DNA from: Patescibacteria group bacterium
GTDB lineage: Bacteria; Patescibacteriota; Minisyncoccia; Phycocordibacterales; UBA2100
NCBI GenBank assembly: GCA_021731295.1
Contig: JAKFXQ010000014.1
Span: 1 to 60,164, forward strand
DNA: 60,164 nucleotides
Direction of reading: 5' to 3'
Program-made: the position numbers and the translations under genes
Part shown: piece by piece, positions 50,818 to 56,425 of the stretch
Layout of the letters: each line of letters opens with the position of its first letter
Position numbering within the stretch: the first letter of the stretch is position 1
Notes under the pieces: generated by a model
Database searches by the model: none
The model's input: only the letters and a program-made list of their open reading frames with translations
Told to the model about the DNA's origin: nothing

Positions 50818-51105
50818 ATGTCAGGCTTTCTTGATTTTATTCGTGAGCAAGGTGTTGTTGGTCTCGCAGTCGGGTTCATTCTCGGTGGCGCTGTGTCGAA
50901 AGTCGTTACAGCGGTGGTAAACGATATTGTGAATCCGCTTCTCGGTCTCGTCCTGGGCTCTGCGGAAGGTTTGCGTGCCATGTCGCTCGGCCCAATTCTC
51001 CTCGGTGACCTCTTCGTCGTGTTTATTGATTTTATGGTCATTGCCGCGGTCGTCTATTTCGGCGTGAAAGGACTTGGTCTCGATAAGATGGATAAGAAAG
51101 CCTAG
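50818..51105 (+). CDS. mscL: Large-conductance mechanosensitive channel, short paralog 1
   Basis: 95 aa. FLDFIREQGVVGLAVGFILGGAVSKVVTAVVNDIVNPLLG. Confidence 0.85.
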   Translation: MSGFLDFIREQGVVGLAVGFILGGAVSKVVTAVVNDIVNPLLGLVLGSAEGLRAMSLGPILLGDLFVVFIDFMVIAAVVYFGVKGLGLDKMDKKA

Positions 51106-51135
51106 CGAGTGACTAGTGCCAATTGAGATGTTCGT

Positions 51136-51489
51136 ATGTCAGATGAGACAGTAAAAGAATCACGTCGCGACCGAACCATTCTTGCCGCACCGCGGGAAGC
51201 CGTCGGCGGGTTTCTTGAATTCATTCGCGAACGCGGCGTTGCGGGGCTCCTTATCGGCTTTGTGCTCGGCGGCGCGCTCACCAAGGTGACGACTTCTTTT
51301 TCGAACGACATTCTCAATCCCTCGCTCGCCATCGTCTTTGGTTCTACACAAAGGCTCGCTGACGTATCGTTGGGCACCATCGCGATAGGCAAGTTTGCTG
51401 TTGCGGTGATGGACTTCGTCATTCTTGCGCTGGTCTTGTACATTCTCTTCCGCGTCATGGGACTCGACAAGCTGGACAAGCCGAAGTAA
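51136..51489 (+). CDS. mscL: Large-conductance mechanosensitive channel, short paralog 2
   Basis: 117 aa. FLEFIRERGVAGLLIGFVLGGALTKVTTSFSNDILNPSLA. Confidence 0.85.
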   Translation: MSDETVKESRRDRTILAAPREAVGGFLEFIRERGVAGLLIGFVLGGALTKVTTSFSNDILNPSLAIVFGSTQRLADVSLGTIAIGKFAVAVMDFVILALVLYILFRVMGLDKLDKPK

Positions 51490-51593
51490 GGCCACGCATC
51501 TATCGCTACTGACCCGACATCGTTTTGACGCACGTCCTTTGAGGCGCTATACCTCACACGGGACTGTTCACCCCTCGAGAACGGGAGTTCACG

Positions 51594-52256
51594 ATGATAG
51601 ACAAGCAGGCTCTAGACTACGACGCCTTGCGCGACCGTTTCGTACGGTTGTGTGTCGGCGCAGTACCCGAACGACTACGCGAGGAGCGATTCGAGAACGC
51701 GCCAATTGAGTTCGACTACCTCTGTGGCGATTCGCGCTGTCGTTTCGTGTCAGTGGAAGGGAAGAAGCTCTTTCTCGGCACAACGCGACTAGCGATGGAG
51801 ACACCGAAAGGAGGGTTTCACTGGGTCGGCGATTTTGCAATTCAGCTGGACACAGTGAGCAAACTCGTTACCTGCATCGGTTCCGATGAGCGCTCTGGAG
51901 AACACAAGTCAGTTGCGTGGCATCCGCACGTCCATTCGACGAGCACGCCCTGTTTCGGTGACACAGGACTCCACAAGCTCAAACTGTGGTTCGCCGACGG
52001 GAAGCTCGCGCACGCGGGACTCTACGTCATCGAGTTCCTGTGTCTCGCTCGTGGAACGAATCAATATGTTGCGCCTTCGTATTGGCCCCGACTTACGCTA
52101 GAGGAGATTAGTGAATGGAAAGCGAAGCTACCGCAAGAACCGAGATCCTCTTCCCGGCGCGCGAGTTCAACCCAGCTCCCGTCTACATTGGTGGTCTCGG
52201 AGCGCTCGGGGGTCACACGGCAGTGGCGTTGGGGAAGCTCGGAGTCGCAAACTTGA
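51594..52256 (+). CDS. Hypothetical protein with UBC/E2-like H-P-H...Cys motif (candidate prokaryotic E2)
   Basis: 220 aa. GGGAG lies 5 nt upstream of the ATG. A beta-rich core is followed by AWHPHVHSTSTPCFGD (His110-Pro111-His112 at nt 51921-51929, Cys120 at nt 51951). The last ~47 codons are Ser/Arg-rich and overlap the next ORF. Confidence 0.45.
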   Translation: MIDKQALDYDALRDRFVRLCVGAVPERLREERFENAPIEFDYLCGDSRCRFVSVEGKKLFLGTTRLAMETPKGGFHWVGDFAIQLDTVSKLVTCIGSDERSGEHKSVAWHPHVHSTSTPCFGDTGLHKLKLWFADGKLAHAGLYVIEFLCLARGTNQYVAPSYWPRLTLEEISEWKAKLPQEPRSSSRRASSTQLPSTLVVSERSGVTRQWRWGSSESQT

Positions 52257-52816
52257 ATGGATGCGACCGAGACATCGTCAGCCCGCCGAACATTGGCACG
52301 TCCATCTACGGGCCGGCGAACGTCGGGTACACGAAAGCGAGTCAGTGTCAGGCGATTGTCTCCAGTGCCACGTCGGTCTCGATGAGAGCGCATGACTGCT
52401 TCATACAGGAGCAAGACCTCGAAGGTGTCGTCATGATCTGTGTTCACGACATGGATGTCCGGAAGGAAATCCTCTTCGAGCACTGCACGCCACGTAACGG
52501 CGTTCAGCGAGTCGCACGAGTCTTCGAAGGTCGAATGAGCGCGGAGACCATCACTATCCACTCGCTCGATCCCGGGGAGGATGCACACCTCAATGAGTGG
52601 ATGCGCTTCTGGTTTCCGCAGAGCGAAGCACTTCCTGCTCTCGCAGGATGCGGCGAGACGCCTGTCGGTGCGGACTACACGGCCGCAATCGCCGGACGCC
52701 TGATGGCGGCGATGTTCGTCCGTTGGTTCGCGTTCGAAACGGGGCGCGTTCGGAACGCGCCGAATCAGGTGCGGTATGACCTCTCAACATTCGAAGGGAA
52801 GGCATACTACTGGTGA
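52115..52816 (+). CDS. ThiF/MoeB/E1-like adenylation-domain protein
   Basis: 233 aa. GGAGA lies 7 nt upstream of the ATG. Motif order IGGLGALGG (GxGxxG), CDRDIVSPPNIGTS (DxDxV...N), GYTKA, VHDMDVRKE (DxxxxR), as in E1/ThiF Rossmann domains. Confidence 0.65.
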   Translation: MESEATARTEILFPAREFNPAPVYIGGLGALGGHTAVALGKLGVANLNGCDRDIVSPPNIGTSIYGPANVGYTKASQCQAIVSSATSVSMRAHDCFIQEQDLEGVVMICVHDMDVRKEILFEHCTPRNGVQRVARVFEGRMSAETITIHSLDPGEDAHLNEWMRFWFPQSEALPALAGCGETPVGADYTAAIAGRLMAAMFVRWFAFETGRVRNAPNQVRYDLSTFEGKAYYW

Positions 52817-52836
52817 GTGTTTCAAATCACCCTTTT

Positions 52837-52867
52837 GGCCCCGCGGCGTTCTTGACGTCGCGGGGCC
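52837..52867 (+). terminator. Hairpin downstream of the E1-like gene
   Basis: GGCCCCGCG / CGCGGGGCC 9-bp stem with a 13-nt loop, then ATTGTTT. Confidence 0.55.
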
Positions 52868-52954
52868 ATTGTTTACGATTCGTAAGGACCTGCCGCCAAC
52901 CGACCATCATGGGCAGTCGTGCGAGTGTGATGGTTGCAAAGCAAGGAGACGGTC

Positions 52955-53101
52955 ATGTCTGACCGACTGAAAGCGCTCGGAGCGGGCGCCAATATCGTCG
53001 ACGTATCCAGAGTGTCTCCGCCCTCGTCATCGCCGGCCAGTCCGAGTCGCGGACTAACGCCAAGCGAGTCGGCCCGACTCCTTCGGGAGTCCGGCGCCTA
53101 A
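52955..53101 (+). CDS. 48-codon ORF encoding a low-complexity Ser/Pro-rich peptide ending ...LLRESGA
   Basis: Below the ORF-track cutoff, so translated by hand: MSDRLKALGAGANIVDVSRVSPPSSSPASPSRGLTPSESARLLRESGA. AAGGAGA (52943-52949) lies 5 nt upstream of the ATG. A terminator hairpin at 53128-53149 lies downstream. Confidence 0.35.
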   Translation: MSDRLKALGAGANIVDVSRVSPPSSSPASPSRGLTPSESARLLRESGA

Positions 53102-53127
53102 CGCGGTCACGTTTCCGTAGAAGAAGG

Positions 53128-53149
53128 AAGGGGCGCCTCGGCGCCCCTT
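53128..53149 (+). terminator. GC-rich hairpin closing the E2/E1/peptide cassette
   Basis: AAGGGGCGCC / GGCGCCCCTT. Confidence 0.6.
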
Positions 53150-53171
53150 CTGCTTGCGCTATGCTTCACCC

Positions 53172-54596
53172 ATGCAAACGGCGTTTTACGCTGGTGCCTC
53201 GGGACTTTCTCTCGGCATTGCCTACGGACTTCTTGTGGGAAATGGCCTCGCGCCGGTGTTTCTCTGCGCACTACTTGCACTCGTTCTCTTTTTTCTGCGT
53301 CCATCATGGGGCGTTTTCTTTTTCTGTGCCGCGCTCGGTGTGCTGCGCGTTGGGGATGTTGTTGTGGATGCTGCGCTTGAAAATCAGCTTGGTAACGAAG
53401 TGGTGATTGAAGGCAGGATTATCGAGGAGCCAGATATTCGTGAACGGAGCACGCGACTCTCCGTTGAAACAGATTCTGGTGCACGTGTTCTCGTCATAGC
53501 GCAGCCGTATATCGCCGTGCAGTACGGCGAACGCATTCGCGCAGAAGGTACGCTCGGGTTGCCGCGACGGTTCGAAACGGGGGAGGGCCGCACGTTCGAC
53601 TACGCGGGATTTCTGGAGCGTCGCGGCATTCGTTATGAACTCTCGTTCGCGGACATTGAGCGCCTCGACGTGCGAGAGGGCAACGTTGTGATTGCAACTG
53701 CAATCGCCATAAAGCACTGGTATCTCTCTGGACTCACGCAGAGCTTGCCCGAACCACACGCAGGTTTGGCAGGAGGCATTACGGTTGGCGACAAACGTGG
53801 CGTCGGTGAAGACTTAGGCGATGTGTTCCAAACAGTGGGACTCACACACATCGTCGTCTTGTCGGGCTACAACATCATGATTGTCATCGTGCTCATTGAA
53901 AAACTTCTAGGGCCAGCACGATTGCGATTGCGACTCGCGATGAGTATTGTTGTCGCGCTGTTCTTCGTACTCATGACCGGATTTGCATCTGCATCCGTGC
54001 GCGCTGCGGCGATGGCGACCATTGCAACCGTTGGGCGCGCGACGGGACGAGTGTATCTCGCGCTCAACGCACTTATCCTCGTTGCAGCATGTATGATTCT
54101 CGTGAATCCACGACTACTCCTCTTCGATCCAGGGTTCCAACTCTCCATCGTTGCGACATGGGGATTAATCGCGCTCGCTCCACTCATTGAGATGCGGCTC
54201 ACCCGCATTACCGAACGATTCGAGCTGCGCGGAATTATGGGCGCCACCATCGCGACGCAGATTGCAGTCTTACCACTCCTTTTGTTTCAAAGCGGCATGC
54301 TGCCTAGCATGTCATTGCCAGCAAACTTTCTCGTCTTGCCCTTTGTGCCGCTCGCGATGCTGCTGTCGTTCATTGCGGGACTGATTGGAGCAGTGCTACC
54401 GTTCGCCGCTCCCATCTTCGGGTTTCCCGCGCTCGCCGTGCTTGAGTACGTTATTCGTATTTCGGAAGCACTCGCGTCATTTCCACTCAGTACGGCAACA
54501 GTCCCCGCCTTCTCGCCGGTCGTGCTCGCTACTGTCTACGTCCTCCTTATTGCGCTCGTGCAGTCTCGAAGCGCTGCGCAATCACGTCCCAGTTAA
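53172..54596 (+). CDS. comEC: ComEC/Rec2 DNA-uptake channel, membrane portion (DUF4131 plus Competence domains)
   Basis: ORF trimmed to MQTAFYAGASG... OB-like DUF4131 segment (VVIEGRIIEEPDIRERSTR), Competence-domain motif GLTHIVVLSGYNIMIV, and many TM helices. No MBL domain in this ORF. Confidence 0.85.
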   Translation: MQTAFYAGASGLSLGIAYGLLVGNGLAPVFLCALLALVLFFLRPSWGVFFFCAALGVLRVGDVVVDAALENQLGNEVVIEGRIIEEPDIRERSTRLSVETDSGARVLVIAQPYIAVQYGERIRAEGTLGLPRRFETGEGRTFDYAGFLERRGIRYELSFADIERLDVREGNVVIATAIAIKHWYLSGLTQSLPEPHAGLAGGITVGDKRGVGEDLGDVFQTVGLTHIVVLSGYNIMIVIVLIEKLLGPARLRLRLAMSIVVALFFVLMTGFASASVRAAAMATIATVGRATGRVYLALNALILVAACMILVNPRLLLFDPGFQLSIVATWGLIALAPLIEMRLTRITERFELRGIMGATIATQIAVLPLLLFQSGMLPSMSLPANFLVLPFVPLAMLLSFIAGLIGAVLPFAAPIFGFPALAVLEYVIRISEALASFPLSTATVPAFSPVVLATVYVLLIALVQSRSAAQSRPS

Positions 54597-55140
54597 GGTT
54601 TGCGATGAATGCATCGATGTATTTCGCTTTGCCCACAGCACCATAGTCGAGGAGAAACGCATGCTCCCACACATCCATAGCGAGAATGATAGGTAGTGTC
54701 GCAAAGTGTCCCTGATGCTGTTCTCCCGAAAAGCCGACGAGGAATTGTCCGGCGACAGGATCCCAGTAGAGAAGCGCCCATCCTGGGCCACGCATATTTC
54801 CGACAGCTTTGAAGTACTGGAGAAAGAATCCTTTGTATTCTCCGGCAAGCTGTTGCCCAAGAGGAGACTGTGCGTCTAACGGCTTCGCACCGCCTTCGAA
54901 TTGCGCAAAATAGAGTTCGTGTAGCCGCATGCCATCGAATTCGAATGACCGGCGACGGACGAGTTCGGCAAGTGCATGTGCATGTTTCTCACTGTCTTCC
55001 ATGCCGTACTCAACCAGTTTCTGCGATATTGCGTTGAAATTCTTAACATAGCCTTGATACAACTGGAGATGTTCATCTACTGACTTCTGCGAGATACCTT
55101 CGAGCGTTGGAATGCTAAATGTGCGTGGTTCGTAGTTCAT
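54547..55140 (-). CDS. Fe/Mn-family superoxide dismutase
   Basis: 197 aa. HLQLYQGYV, AMDVWEHAFLLDYG. The 3' end overlaps the convergent comEC ORF by 50 nt. Confidence 0.92.
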   Translation of the reverse strand: MNYEPRTFSIPTLEGISQKSVDEHLQLYQGYVKNFNAISQKLVEYGMEDSEKHAHALAELVRRRSFEFDGMRLHELYFAQFEGGAKPLDAQSPLGQQLAGEYKGFFLQYFKAVGNMRGPGWALLYWDPVAGQFLVGFSGEQHQGHFATLPIILAMDVWEHAFLLDYGAVGKAKYIDAFIANLNWDVIAQRFETARAQ

Positions 55141-55480: not shown

Positions 55481-56425
55481 GTGTTTCGGCAACGTGCTGT
55501 TATACACCACATTCAGGACGTTACGCAAGGTAGCCTGCGAGATACGTGCGACGGCAATCACATCAGGTACACTATTTTTGTGAATGCGCGGCGTATCGTT
55601 ACCGCCTCGTGCGGAGCACTCCTTGGTGCATCCATAGTCATTACGCATGCAGCGTTCGTGCGAACGAATGCGTTCAGTATTACATTCATCGATGTTGGTC
55701 AGGGAGATGCGGCATTTATCACTACTCCGTCGGGAAGGCAAATTCTTATCGACGGCGGACCCGATCGTTCCGTTCTGCGCGGACTCGCAGAACGTATGCC
55801 ATGGTGGGACCGACATATAGACGTGGTCATTGCGACGCATCCAGATTCGGATCACGTCTCCGGTCTTATTGATGTGCTGGAGCGCTATCGCGTTTCGTAT
55901 ATTTTCGACCCCGGTGTTGCCCACGACACACCGCAGGCCGAATCGTTGTTTGCGCTGGTTGCCGACGAAGAAGCACAACATGTTCTCGCGCGTCGCGGGC
56001 AGTTCTTGGATTTCGGCGACGGCATCCGACTTGAAATTCTGTTTCCGGACAGGGATGTCTCGGGGCTTGAAACGAACGCTGCATCCATCGTCGCGCGTGT
56101 GATATACAACGACATCGTCATCCTCCTCACGGGCGATGCGCCGGAGAGTATCGAGCGATACCTCGTTTCATTGCATGGAAAGGATATGCGCGCCGACATA
56201 CTGAAAGCAGGGCATCATGGCTCAAACACATCCTCGTCACTCCACTTTGTTGGCCTCGTCTCGCCAGAGTACGCAATCATTTCACGTGGGTGCGATAACA
56301 CGTACGGGCATCCGCACGAAAGTGTACTCGAAACGTTTGCTCGCTTCGATGTGAGCGTGCTTGATACGTGCACCGAAGGGAACATCACGTTCGAGAGCGA
56401 CGGGCAGTCGCTGGTGCGTCGGTAG
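55481..56425 (+). CDS. comEC: ComEC C-terminal metallo-beta-lactamase domain protein (separate ORF)
   Basis: MBL motifs ITFIDVGQGDAAFI, VIATHPDSDHVSGL, LKAGHHGS. The start is uncertain: GTG at 55481, or GTG at 55580 preceding the TM segment RRIVTASCGALLGASIVI. Confidence 0.85.
   Translation: MFRQRAVIHHIQDVTQGSLRDTCDGNHIRYTIFVNARRIVTASCGALLGASIVITHAAFVRTNAFSITFIDVGQGDAAFITTPSGRQILIDGGPDRSVLRGLAERMPWWDRHIDVVIATHPDSDHVSGLIDVLERYRVSYIFDPGVAHDTPQAESLFALVADEEAQHVLARRGQFLDFGDGIRLEILFPDRDVSGLETNAASIVARVIYNDIVILLTGDAPESIERYLVSLHGKDMRADILKAGHHGSNTSSSLHFVGLVSPEYAIISRGCDNTYGHPHESVLETFARFDVSVLDTCTEGNITFESDGQSLVRR

Follow-up and report, generated by a model that had tools for sequence, protein, structure and literature searches.

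Do the activating (E1) and conjugating (E2) enzymes of ubiquitin-type systems need a modifier with the ubiquitin fold? This question is raised by a locus on contig JAKFXQ010000014.1 of a Patescibacteria group bacterium (assembly GCA_021731295.1), of which the whole stretch analysed here, 60,164 nucleotides with a G+C content of 55%, is called the window. Between the second of two mscL paralogs and comEC lie two co-oriented open reading frames (ORFs), ORF1 and ORF2, each preceded by a ribosome-binding site (RBS) that can be read from the sequence (GGGAG at 51583-51587 and GGAG at 52103-52106, respectively), and behind them the gene of a 48-residue peptide (Table 1). A first-pass annotation had taken the two ORFs for a minimal E2-like/E1-like conjugation cassette, and both were indeed present, with the motifs quoted for them. 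Our reading, to which we assign a probability of roughly one half, is that the three genes form a ubiquitin-type conjugation cassette that is fixed in the chromosomes of Saccharibacteria-like members of the candidate phyla radiation (CPR) and that activates the C-terminus of the peptide. NCBI and UniRef label all three products as hypothetical or uncharacterised, and within a limited literature collection we found nothing specific on such a cassette in Saccharibacteria or CPR.

A word-indexed protein search returned no relatives of ORF1, and its own sequence was absent from a database of 5.8 billion proteins. In the contigs that carry relatives of ORF2, gene callers often skip ORF1 (and once ORF2) and call short antisense ORFs instead, apparently because the two reading frames overlap, by 142 nt in the window; the family is therefore under-represented in protein databases. 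Antisense calls of this kind, short or long, replace ORF1 at positions 5447-5899 of L001 (we number the related loci with the prefix L) and in L013, L014 and L015, and ORF2 at positions 1216-1917 of L017. When the contigs were searched by tblastn and the ORFs traced, an ORF1 homologue was found directly upstream of every ORF2 homologue. ORF1 could be aligned in eight lineages at 37-53% identity. Among the frames tested, only that of ORF1 was free of stop codons in all nine loci, and its variability was highest at third codon positions (0.64, compared to 0.39-0.42 at positions 1 and 2). For these two reasons, we regard ORF1 as a real gene. Its conservation stops at about residue 178, beyond which the frame runs on to a variable length; the last ~45 residues of the window's copy are not conserved and represent an alternative frame of the start of ORF2. 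Across the loci, ORF1 ends 22 nt or 124-142 nt inside ORF2, 13 nt inside it in L022, and 3 nt before it in L018. We also considered a programmed -1 frameshift that would fuse the two proteins, given that ORF2 occupies the -1 frame and that the two are fused in L024. This seems unlikely: no canonical slippery heptamer was seen by eye in the overlap, and ORF2 has its own RBS and an ATG that directly follows two in-frame stop codons, which makes its start unambiguous.

As a single sequence, ORF1 matched nothing in Pfam, NCBIfam, PADLOC or PHROGs. A four-sequence profile searched against 1.84 billion cluster representatives (E ≤1e-3) recovered a family of at least 436 representatives, which share the signature [HY]-H-P-H-[VI]-x3-G-x-[PA]-C-[LFW]-G. 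In the window, the corresponding motif is W109-H110-P111-H112-V-H-STST-P119-C120. In an alignment of 57 sequences, Cys120 and Trp164 were invariant, and Pro111 and His112 were conserved in at least 90%. The first-pass annotation had pointed to Cys120 and His110 as the residues to follow among homologues. The cysteine bore this out, whereas His110 is kept only within the CPR clade, and it is His112 that is near-invariant across the wider family. Family members scanned against Pfam, NCBIfam and PHROGs gave no matches, and in a scan of the 57 aligned members two matched the Pfam E2 family UQ_con directly (best E 2.9e-5). UQ_con, which the first annotation had proposed to search, was thus reached through relatives, but Prok-E2_A to Prok-E2_E, named alongside it, matched neither the window's ORF1 nor any of the 57 members at E ≤1. 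A reading of the motif as JAMM, in which H-P-H-x7-C-x2-D would mimic H-x-H-x7-S-x2-D, was rejected, as the Asp and the spacing vary in relatives.

Profile searches gave a consistent answer. When the 57-sequence profile was searched against all chain sequences of the PDB, 59 of the 60 best matches were E2 enzymes, led by UBE2L3 (E 7.8e-4) and including UBC9 (1.4e-3). The alignment placed 'HPHv..dGtpCl' over 'HPNIDEKGQVCL', and the loop over HPNIDEKGQVC of UBE2L3. Compared by hhalign with a profile of six canonical E2s, the family aligned with 94.9% probability (E 4.5e-8) over 121 columns; a control against the ThiF family reached 0.2%. In this alignment, residues 36-164 of ORF1 fall on residues 6-127 of UBE2D2, with H110/P111/H112 on H75/P76/N77 and C120 on C85, so that the loop follows the logic of the HPN motif plus catalytic Cys, as had been proposed from the letters alone. 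At the level of sequence, ORF1 is homologous to E2s of the ubiquitin-conjugating (UBC) superfamily, with the predicted catalytic Cys in register.

An AlphaFold2 model built on the 57-sequence alignment (pLDDT 95.6, pTM 0.90) showed two N-terminal helices, a beta-meander, the HPH-Cys loop and two further helices, in this order. It replaced a first model from a 4-sequence alignment, which was discarded. In a Foldseek search of the PDB with the newer model, Ube2S ranked first, Ube2E2 second and UbcH5c sixth, which suggests that the predicted structure matches the UBC fold. For the fold expected at first pass, the ranking of the E2s is suggestive, but the scores are weak (E 0.07-0.36, TM 0.35-0.45).

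ORF2 carries the motifs GGLGALGG, CDRDIVSPPNIGTS, GYTKA and VHDMDVRKE in this order and has nine database relatives at 45-62% identity. It had been described as an adenylation domain of the ThiF/MoeB/E1 type with no room for a separate catalytic-Cys domain, and both statements hold. Pfam ThiF (PF00899) was matched at 31.1 bits, above the gathering score of 28.1, by the N-terminal (Rossmann) half only. By hhalign, a profile of ten cassette E1s aligned with E. coli ThiF and MoeB at 98.1% probability over 193 columns, and because of this alignment we consider ORF2 to be entirely one adenylation domain, with no additional Cys domain. The Cap2 'E1-E2' models of PADLOC also matched the Rossmann region, with the E1 half of the models only and with E-values down to 4.9e-9. 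The nearest solved relatives were ThiF (best, 1.4e-6), UBA5, MccB (3e-6) and MoeB, followed by PaaA (3e-4) and TcdA. In CPR and phage members of the family, the nucleotide-binding residues G27, G29, G32, D51 and K74 are invariant, as are N59, R140, C179-G180 and the C-terminal W233. Judged from these alignments, ORF2 is an adenylation domain of the ThiF/MoeB/E1 type, complete in length but strongly diverged.

In size and as a single domain, ORF2 resembles ThiF and MoeB; ThiF is its best solved match, and the candidate carrier ends in Gly. ORF2 might thus belong to sulfur transfer or cofactor synthesis, with the peptide as a sulfur carrier bearing a C-terminal thiocarboxylate and ORF1 unrelated. 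We give this explanation hardly any weight. The NCBIfam ThiF/MoeB equivalogs scored 38.3 and 37.2 bits at best, compared to cut-offs of 159 and 152, and the MoeB equivalog models no more than 16 bits (cut-offs 266-376). There are no ThiS/MoaD beta-grasp, rhodanese, thiazole synthase or molybdopterin synthase genes nearby, and it would remain unexplained why ORF2 is always paired, and in one lineage fused, with an E2-like domain that bears a Cys. We reject an ordinary ThiF/MoeB because of the equivalog scores and the gene context; the objection that the first-pass annotation had raised against itself, a grouping with cofactor enzymes, can be set aside.

Adjacent E2-like and E1-like genes were found in 13 CPR lineages at one syntenic chromosomal site, with the identity of ORF1 falling to 21%. 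The order of genes there is (HIT), RecJ, DUF7847, RNase H, MscL, E2-like, E1-like, small ORF, (ComEC), superoxide dismutase (SOD), L28, M50 and S12, and it is kept even in P0035 and P0061, whose ORF1 shares no more than 21-23% identity with that of the window. In GCA_964636905.1 (L024), both enzymes are fused at this same site into a protein of 410 aa, of which residues 4-173 are E2-like and residues 197-380 correspond to ThiF. The survey of neighbourhoods proposed at first pass thus shows the two enzymes always together and, in one lineage, as a single chain. The cassette occupies a single site between housekeeping genes even where its proteins share only 21-30% identity, a pattern that points to selection during prolonged vertical descent and not to a mobile defence island. 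In these ultra-small episymbiotic bacteria, it belongs to the vertically inherited core genome. One locus with the gene order of the Saccharibacteria loci, L018 (GCA_002773285.1, PFBM01000008.1), bears the NCBI label Candidatus Kaiserbacteria; either the cassette and its synteny reach beyond Saccharibacteria, or the label is imprecise.

The first annotation had found no ubiquitin-like protein (Ubl) or deubiquitinase beside the enzymes. Accordingly, no beta-grasp protein or JAB is annotated within ~6 kb of the cassette in the window or its relatives, and no Ubl, JAB or DUF6527 in the cassette neighbourhoods. Pfam families for a CD-NTase, an effector or a JAB (Cap3) are likewise absent within ~6 kb in the window and the related loci examined, and no regulator of the CapW/CapH type lies nearby. 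The 48-codon ORF, however, which had been mentioned as a mere extra coding candidate, is a real gene and a candidate modifier or substrate outside the beta-grasp fold.

Wherever the available sequence is long enough, the E1 gene is followed by an ORF of 48-60 codons, whose RBS in the window is AAGGAGA (52943-52949). Its variability is again highest at third codon positions (0.61, compared to 0.37-0.43), and by this pattern the gene is under purifying selection. Across 12 lineages, the peptide has a conserved N-terminal segment ([RK]-[LM]-x-A-L-G-A ... V-D-V-S) and a conserved C-terminal segment (T-P-x-E-x-x-R-x-[KR]-R-E-x-G-x), separated by a variable middle that is rich in Pro, Ser, Ala and Gly. 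Two residues alone are invariant, Met1 and a Gly that closes the peptide or precedes its final residue. This Gly is terminal in two of the 12 lineages (...VDLG and ...VSLG) and penultimate in the other ten, where A, F, M, Y or L follows; none of the 12 peptides ends in Asn, in GGQ or in GGE. The peptide has no Pfam match. Its gene still adjoins that of the E1 in L018, which lacks an adjacent ComEC, and in L024, which lacks an adjacent MscL. On this comparative evidence, the peptide is a conserved third component, and the cassette probably does have a modifier or substrate, one that is not beta-grasp.

A short peptide of this kind, non-beta-grasp, with a conserved, leader-like N-terminal segment and a conserved C-terminus, could also be the precursor in a pathway for ribosomally synthesised and post-translationally modified peptides (RiPPs). 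ORF2 would then act like MccB or PaaA, to which it is about as close as to ThiF and UBA5, and yield a peptide-nucleotide or a cyclised product, with ORF1 as an accessory transferase. We consider this quite improbable. MccB chemistry needs a C-terminal Asn, whereas the peptide ends in Gly or Gly-X. The match of ORF2 to MccB begins at MccB residue 111-114, and only ~20 residues of ORF2 precede the Rossmann motif, so that an N-terminal peptide-clamp domain is lacking. No exporter, immunity or tailoring genes lie near the cassette, we know of no RiPP pathway that uses a Cys enzyme with a UBC fold, and the cassette is a fixed feature of the core genome, not a sporadic biosynthetic cluster.

The peptide gene is set apart from the enzymes by its own signals. 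Upstream of ORF1, a TTGAC box stands ~17 nt before a TATA(C/T)(C/A) box at the same place in 11 of the 12 related loci checked (promoter P1); without the last T in its -10 box, the window's copy escaped a consensus scan. Seven loci (L001, L004, L006, L007, L016, L022 and L024) carry a CTTTAACA / CTTAACA element between P1 and the RBS of ORF1, ~20-30 nt upstream of the ORF1 start; it is absent from the window's leader. The GC hairpins that had been noted after ORF2 and after the peptide gene were both confirmed (Table 1). The loop of the first holds the -35 box of the next promoter, P2, with the -10 box just past the T-run. P2 is one of only two sigma-70-like sites in 51000-53400, where 0.7 would be expected by chance, and both of its boxes are positionally conserved in relatives. 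The stem of this hairpin covaries, and TTGAC is invariant in ten aligned lineages and present in all 12 that were read. The compact terminator-promoter arrangement as a whole (52836-52879) is conserved across 12 lineages.

Downstream of P2, the predicted leader of the peptide mRNA can fold into an H-type pseudoknot, in which stem A pairs CCTGCC (52889-52894) with GGCAG (52912-52916) and stem B pairs CCATCAT (52904-52910) with GTGATGG (52927-52933). Of the 27 pairs in the hairpin and the two pseudoknot stems, 15 were changed on both sides, and none of 500 shuffles reached the observed values; in stem B, all eight pairs were compensatory. The pseudoknot stems are readable by eye in 11 of 12 lineages, with L001, L006, L007, L008, L010, L011, L016, L017, L022 and L024 having them besides the window. 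Rfam models gave only generic hairpin matches to the spacer and leader, far below gathering scores. The leader may thus be a new cis-regulatory RNA or a riboswitch candidate. The T-run of the hairpin that closes the peptide gene is poor on the + strand of the window; in L022, the equivalent hairpin is followed by TTTTCTGTT. With its own promoter, leader and closing hairpin, the peptide is therefore expressed, and probably regulated, separately from the enzymes.

Relatives of the two enzymes occur in phages. Many members of the ORF1 family, 340-650 aa in length, combine a coiled-coil region at the N-terminus with the domain itself, present once or twice, and the structural matches in BFVD are uncharacterised phage proteins (probability up to 1.0). 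In all 12 phage-like loci, comprising one metagenomic contig (L021, 2554-6034) and eleven IMG/VR contigs (L025-L035) that were found with an alignment of the 'DPHPHV' clade, the genes are ordered E2-like, JAMM-motif protein, E1. The E2-like proteins belong to the HPH-Cys family (340-590 aa, coiled-coil N-terminus), the JAMM protein has the exact motif HSHVNMxxxPSGQD, and the E1 (221-242 aa) belongs to the subfamily of ORF2, matching the profile of the cassette E1s at E ≤1e-47. In six of the 12 loci, a conserved protein of 72-82 aa ending in QVKGN(x0-2) is encoded immediately before the E2 gene. In L021, both the JAMM-motif and the small protein stayed below library thresholds, the former with a sub-threshold Prok-JAB match only. 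The pattern of the small protein recalls ThiS/MoaD; an assignment as beta-grasp was found to be unsupported by Pfam, by the PDB profile search and by hhalign against ThiS/MoaD. A scan of IMG/VR with a single protein (P0078) found nothing, and neither ORF1 nor two long family members matched any of 50,697 GenBank phage records by tblastn. The gene content of the phage loci indicates that a peptidase and a small partner protein, whose conserved tail contains Gly, are the usual companions of the enzyme pair. From the CPR cassette that peptidase is missing, and the position of the small partner is taken by the disordered peptide.

Since the same E2 and E1 subfamilies occur together in every one of these phage-like contigs, the cassette might be a domesticated remnant of the phage module, serving in phage-host conflict, as defence or counter-defence and not in housekeeping, and perhaps already decaying (JAB lost, His111 in ORF2). 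That the characterised bacterial E1/E2 systems are all antiphage (PMC11601596) would fit such a role. We nevertheless judge it very unlikely: the site is a single syntenic one with housekeeping neighbours and far-diverged proteins, no effector, CD-NTase or CapW/CapH-type regulator is found nearby, and ORF1, ORF2 and the peptide are under purifying selection, with active-site residues intact across lineages.

A more serious, though still unlikely, alternative accepts a real E2/E1 conjugation pair and seeks its substrate elsewhere, at the C-terminus of an unlinked protein, in the manner of Cap2 and the CD-NTase; the peptide would then be an unrelated micro-protein or a regulator. Indeed, ORF2 scores equally well against the Cap2 models and ThiF, and the peptide gene, which has a promoter and a terminator to itself, is transcribed apart from the enzymes. 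Moreover, the gene order is conserved over more than 10 kb around the cassette (RecJ, DUF7847, RNase H, MscL ... ComEC, SOD, L28), which makes adjacency alone weak evidence. On the other hand, the peptide gene keeps to the E1 gene in those loci where ComEC or MscL lies apart, the one invariant residue besides Met1 is precisely the Gly that an E1 substrate needs, and in half of the phage relatives (6/12) the pair is likewise accompanied by a small protein whose conserved tail contains Gly.

From the homologies, the pairing and the conserved Gly, we infer how the three-gene cassette might work. A single promoter would serve ORF1 and ORF2, whose overlapping frames would couple their translation, and the peptide would be expressed from its own promoter behind the pseudoknotted leader. 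ORF2 would bind ATP and adenylate the C-terminal carboxylate of the peptide at the conserved Gly. In the window's clade, a peptidase would first have to remove the single residue after the Gly; elsewhere, the Gly is already terminal. Residues after the Gly also need trimming in Atg8 and in the last polyubiquitin repeat. The acyl group may pass first to the invariant Cys179 of ORF2, would be transferred as a thioester to Cys120 of ORF1, and would finally be handed by ORF1 to the amino group of a target protein without an E3, as in Bil and Cap2. A disordered substrate would have a parallel: according to 2023 work attributed to Ledvina and to Jenson, Cap2 of the type II cyclic-oligonucleotide-based antiphage signalling system (CBASS) reportedly activates the disordered, Gly-ended C-terminus of the CD-NTase and not a beta-grasp Ubl.

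Several points weigh against this proposal. We know of no E1/E2 pair that has a free, non-beta-grasp peptide as its modifier. Peptides of the window's clade carry one residue beyond the Gly (A, F, M, Y or L), and neither the cassette nor the surrounding ~6 kb encodes a peptidase. The adjacency of the peptide gene may reflect the conserved gene order of small genomes and not function. Taken by itself, the resemblance of the ORF1 model to E2s falls short of significance (E 0.07, TM 0.38-0.45), and the first, 4-sequence model (pLDDT 75) gave no E2 matches in Foldseek. In ORF2, Cys179 sits five residues from Cys184 of ThiF, within the segment that hhalign aligned to 184-CRTAGVV-190, and the R-Q of the E1 motif 'N-L-x-R-Q' is replaced by G-T-S or N-Q. 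Furthermore, the window's copy has His111 at the position of the Mg-binding Asp (ThiF D127), which is Asp in all other securely aligned lineages; the adenylation activity of this copy is therefore not assured. The change lies at codon 111 of ORF2 (52445-52447), which gives VHDMD compared to VDDMD in relatives, and could be either a tolerated substitution, D112 and D114 being adjacent, or a sign of reduced activity in the window's lineage.

A more far-reaching version of the proposal, which we offer only tentatively, is that the cassette is a CPR housekeeping E1/E2 system that tags proteins with a free, disordered, Gly-ended peptide of ~50 residues. Activating this 'mini-ubiquitin' would be the task of the smallest E1/E2 pair known, either descended from the phage module of E2, JAMM and E1 or ancestral to it, and control would be exerted through the new pseudoknot leader.

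Table 1. Features of the cassette and its flanks in the window.
Feature	Position	Strand	Description
ORF1	51594..52256	+	220 aa; E2-like (UBC superfamily), unnamed family; conserved part aa 1-~178, tail overlaps ORF2
UBC-like core of ORF1	51699..52085	+	aa 36-164, aligned to UBE2D2 residues 6-127 (hhalign; AlphaFold2 model)
Active-site loop H110-P111-H112 ... C120	51921..51953	+	Cys120 codon TGT at 51951-51953
ORF2	52115..52816	+	233 aa; minimal E1-like (ThiF/MoeB-type) adenylation domain
Peptide gene	52955..53101	+	48 aa, MSDRLKALGAGANIVDVS...TPSESARLLRESGA; third gene, candidate substrate or modifier
Promoter P1 of the ORF1-ORF2 unit	51525..51553	+	likely; TTGACG, 17 nt spacer, TATACC; read from the sequence
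GC hairpin after ORF2	52836..52868	+	terminator-like; 15-pair stem, then T-rich run TTGTTTAC
Promoter P2 of the peptide gene	52852..52879	+	TTGACG, 16 nt spacer, TACGAT
Leader of the peptide mRNA	52889..52934	+	predicted H-type pseudoknot, stems A and B; conserved loop TCGTGCGAG
GC hairpin after the peptide gene	53127..53150	+	likely terminator; 10-pair stem, 8 GC pairs
MscL paralogs, tandem pair	50818-51105 and 51136-51489		upstream flank
ComEC (Competence + DUF4131)	53154-54596		downstream flank

The flanks of the cassette show some features of their own. RNase H is encoded farther upstream and Fe/Mn-SOD farther downstream on the other strand. The window has two tandem MscL paralogs, the second with an N-terminal extension of ~25 residues, where most related loci have one. 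ComEC is split into separate genes for the membrane part with Competence and DUF4131 and for the metallo-beta-lactamase part (55481-56425). The Fe/Mn-SOD gene (54547-55140, minus strand) lies between them, its 3' end overlapping the end of the ComEC ORF by ~50 nt, and this arrangement is also found in relatives. In a single related contig (L004, 175-1185), a reverse-transcriptase (RVT_1) gene stands immediately upstream of RecJ.

If the peptide is indeed the modifier, E1-E2 chemistry does not need the ubiquitin fold, and organisms whose biology is poorly understood have an additional system of post-translational tagging. A conservative reading still yields a new UBC-like family that is unnamed in public model libraries and has many members in phages, a conserved phage module of E2, JAMM and E1, and a new structured leader RNA.

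How does the cassette compare to known systems? To our knowledge, type II CBASS, Bil and Bub form sporadic islands with a JAB-type or serine peptidase and, in all but CBASS, a beta-grasp modifier. Type II CBASS (Cap2/Cap3) resembles the cassette in combining an E2 with a ThiF-type E1 without a beta-grasp Ubl, in the match of its Cap2 models to ORF2, and in the order E2-then-E1 of the fusion seen in one CPR lineage. Unlike CBASS, the cassette has no CD-NTase, effector or JAB (Cap3) nearby and occupies a core-genome site instead of a defence island; its E2 is of a different family, which keeps the classical H-P-x loop, and its candidate substrate is a free peptide of ~50 aa. With canonical UBC E2s (UQ_con), ORF1 shares profile homology over the helix, beta-meander, active-site loop and crossover helix, H-P-H in place of H-P-N, the same 10-residue spacing to the Cys, and the Cys in register; it differs in having no Pfam match for the window's copy, in two long N-terminal helices and extra strands, in a structural similarity of only TM 0.35-0.45, and in a His where the catalytic Asn would be. 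ThiF/ThiS and MoeB/MoaD likewise employ a single-domain E1 of ~230-250 aa that adenylates a C-terminal Gly and is homologous to ORF2 over its full length, but ORF2 falls far below their equivalog cut-offs, is paired with an E2-like protein, and has neither a beta-grasp carrier nor genes for sulfur transfer or cofactors beside it.

Pup is a small, low-complexity and probably disordered covalent protein tag in bacteria. The Pup/PafA system (and UBact) is therefore similar in its tag; however, Pup is ligated through the side chain of its C-terminal Glu by a glutamine-synthetase-like ligase, without E1 or E2, and the cassette peptide ends in Gly or Gly-X, not in GGQ or GGE. In MccB/MccA and PaaA/PaaP, enzymes of the E1 superfamily, at a similar sequence distance to ORF2, act on short ribosomal peptides, but these enzymes need a peptide-clamp domain and a C-terminal Asn (MccA) or an internal Glu-Glu (PaaP), and have no E2-like partner.

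Among bacterial E1/E2 operons, the classes 6a-6e were defined by Iyer et al. 2006; all of them have a JAB, and several have E2s without the classical His (PMC1779556). Type II CBASS, Bil and Bub are the characterised descendants of these classes (PMC11601596). Bil (class 6d; Ubl BilA, E2 BilB, JAB BilC, E1 BilD) is a Ubl-E1-E2 cascade without an E3 (PMC11601596), and the gene set of the phage relatives (small protein, E2, JAMM, E1) is analogous to it. In contrast to the window, Bil has a beta-grasp Ubl and a JAB, and the E2s of class 6d lack the classical His (PMC1779556), whereas the ORF1 family keeps H-P-H. Like the cassette, Bub (6E / DUF6527) represents a divergent branch of bacterial E1/E2 pathways, and its type II has the E2 fused to the E1 (PMC11601596). 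It works through Ser/Tyr oxyesters and has no catalytic Cys in its E1 and E2 (PMC11601596), whereas Cys120 and Cys179 are invariant in the cassette, and it has beta-grasp Ubls and the protease BubE. The cassette thus differs from known E1/E2 systems in the family of its E2, its single-domain E1, the lack of a JAB, its peptide partner and its location in the core genome.

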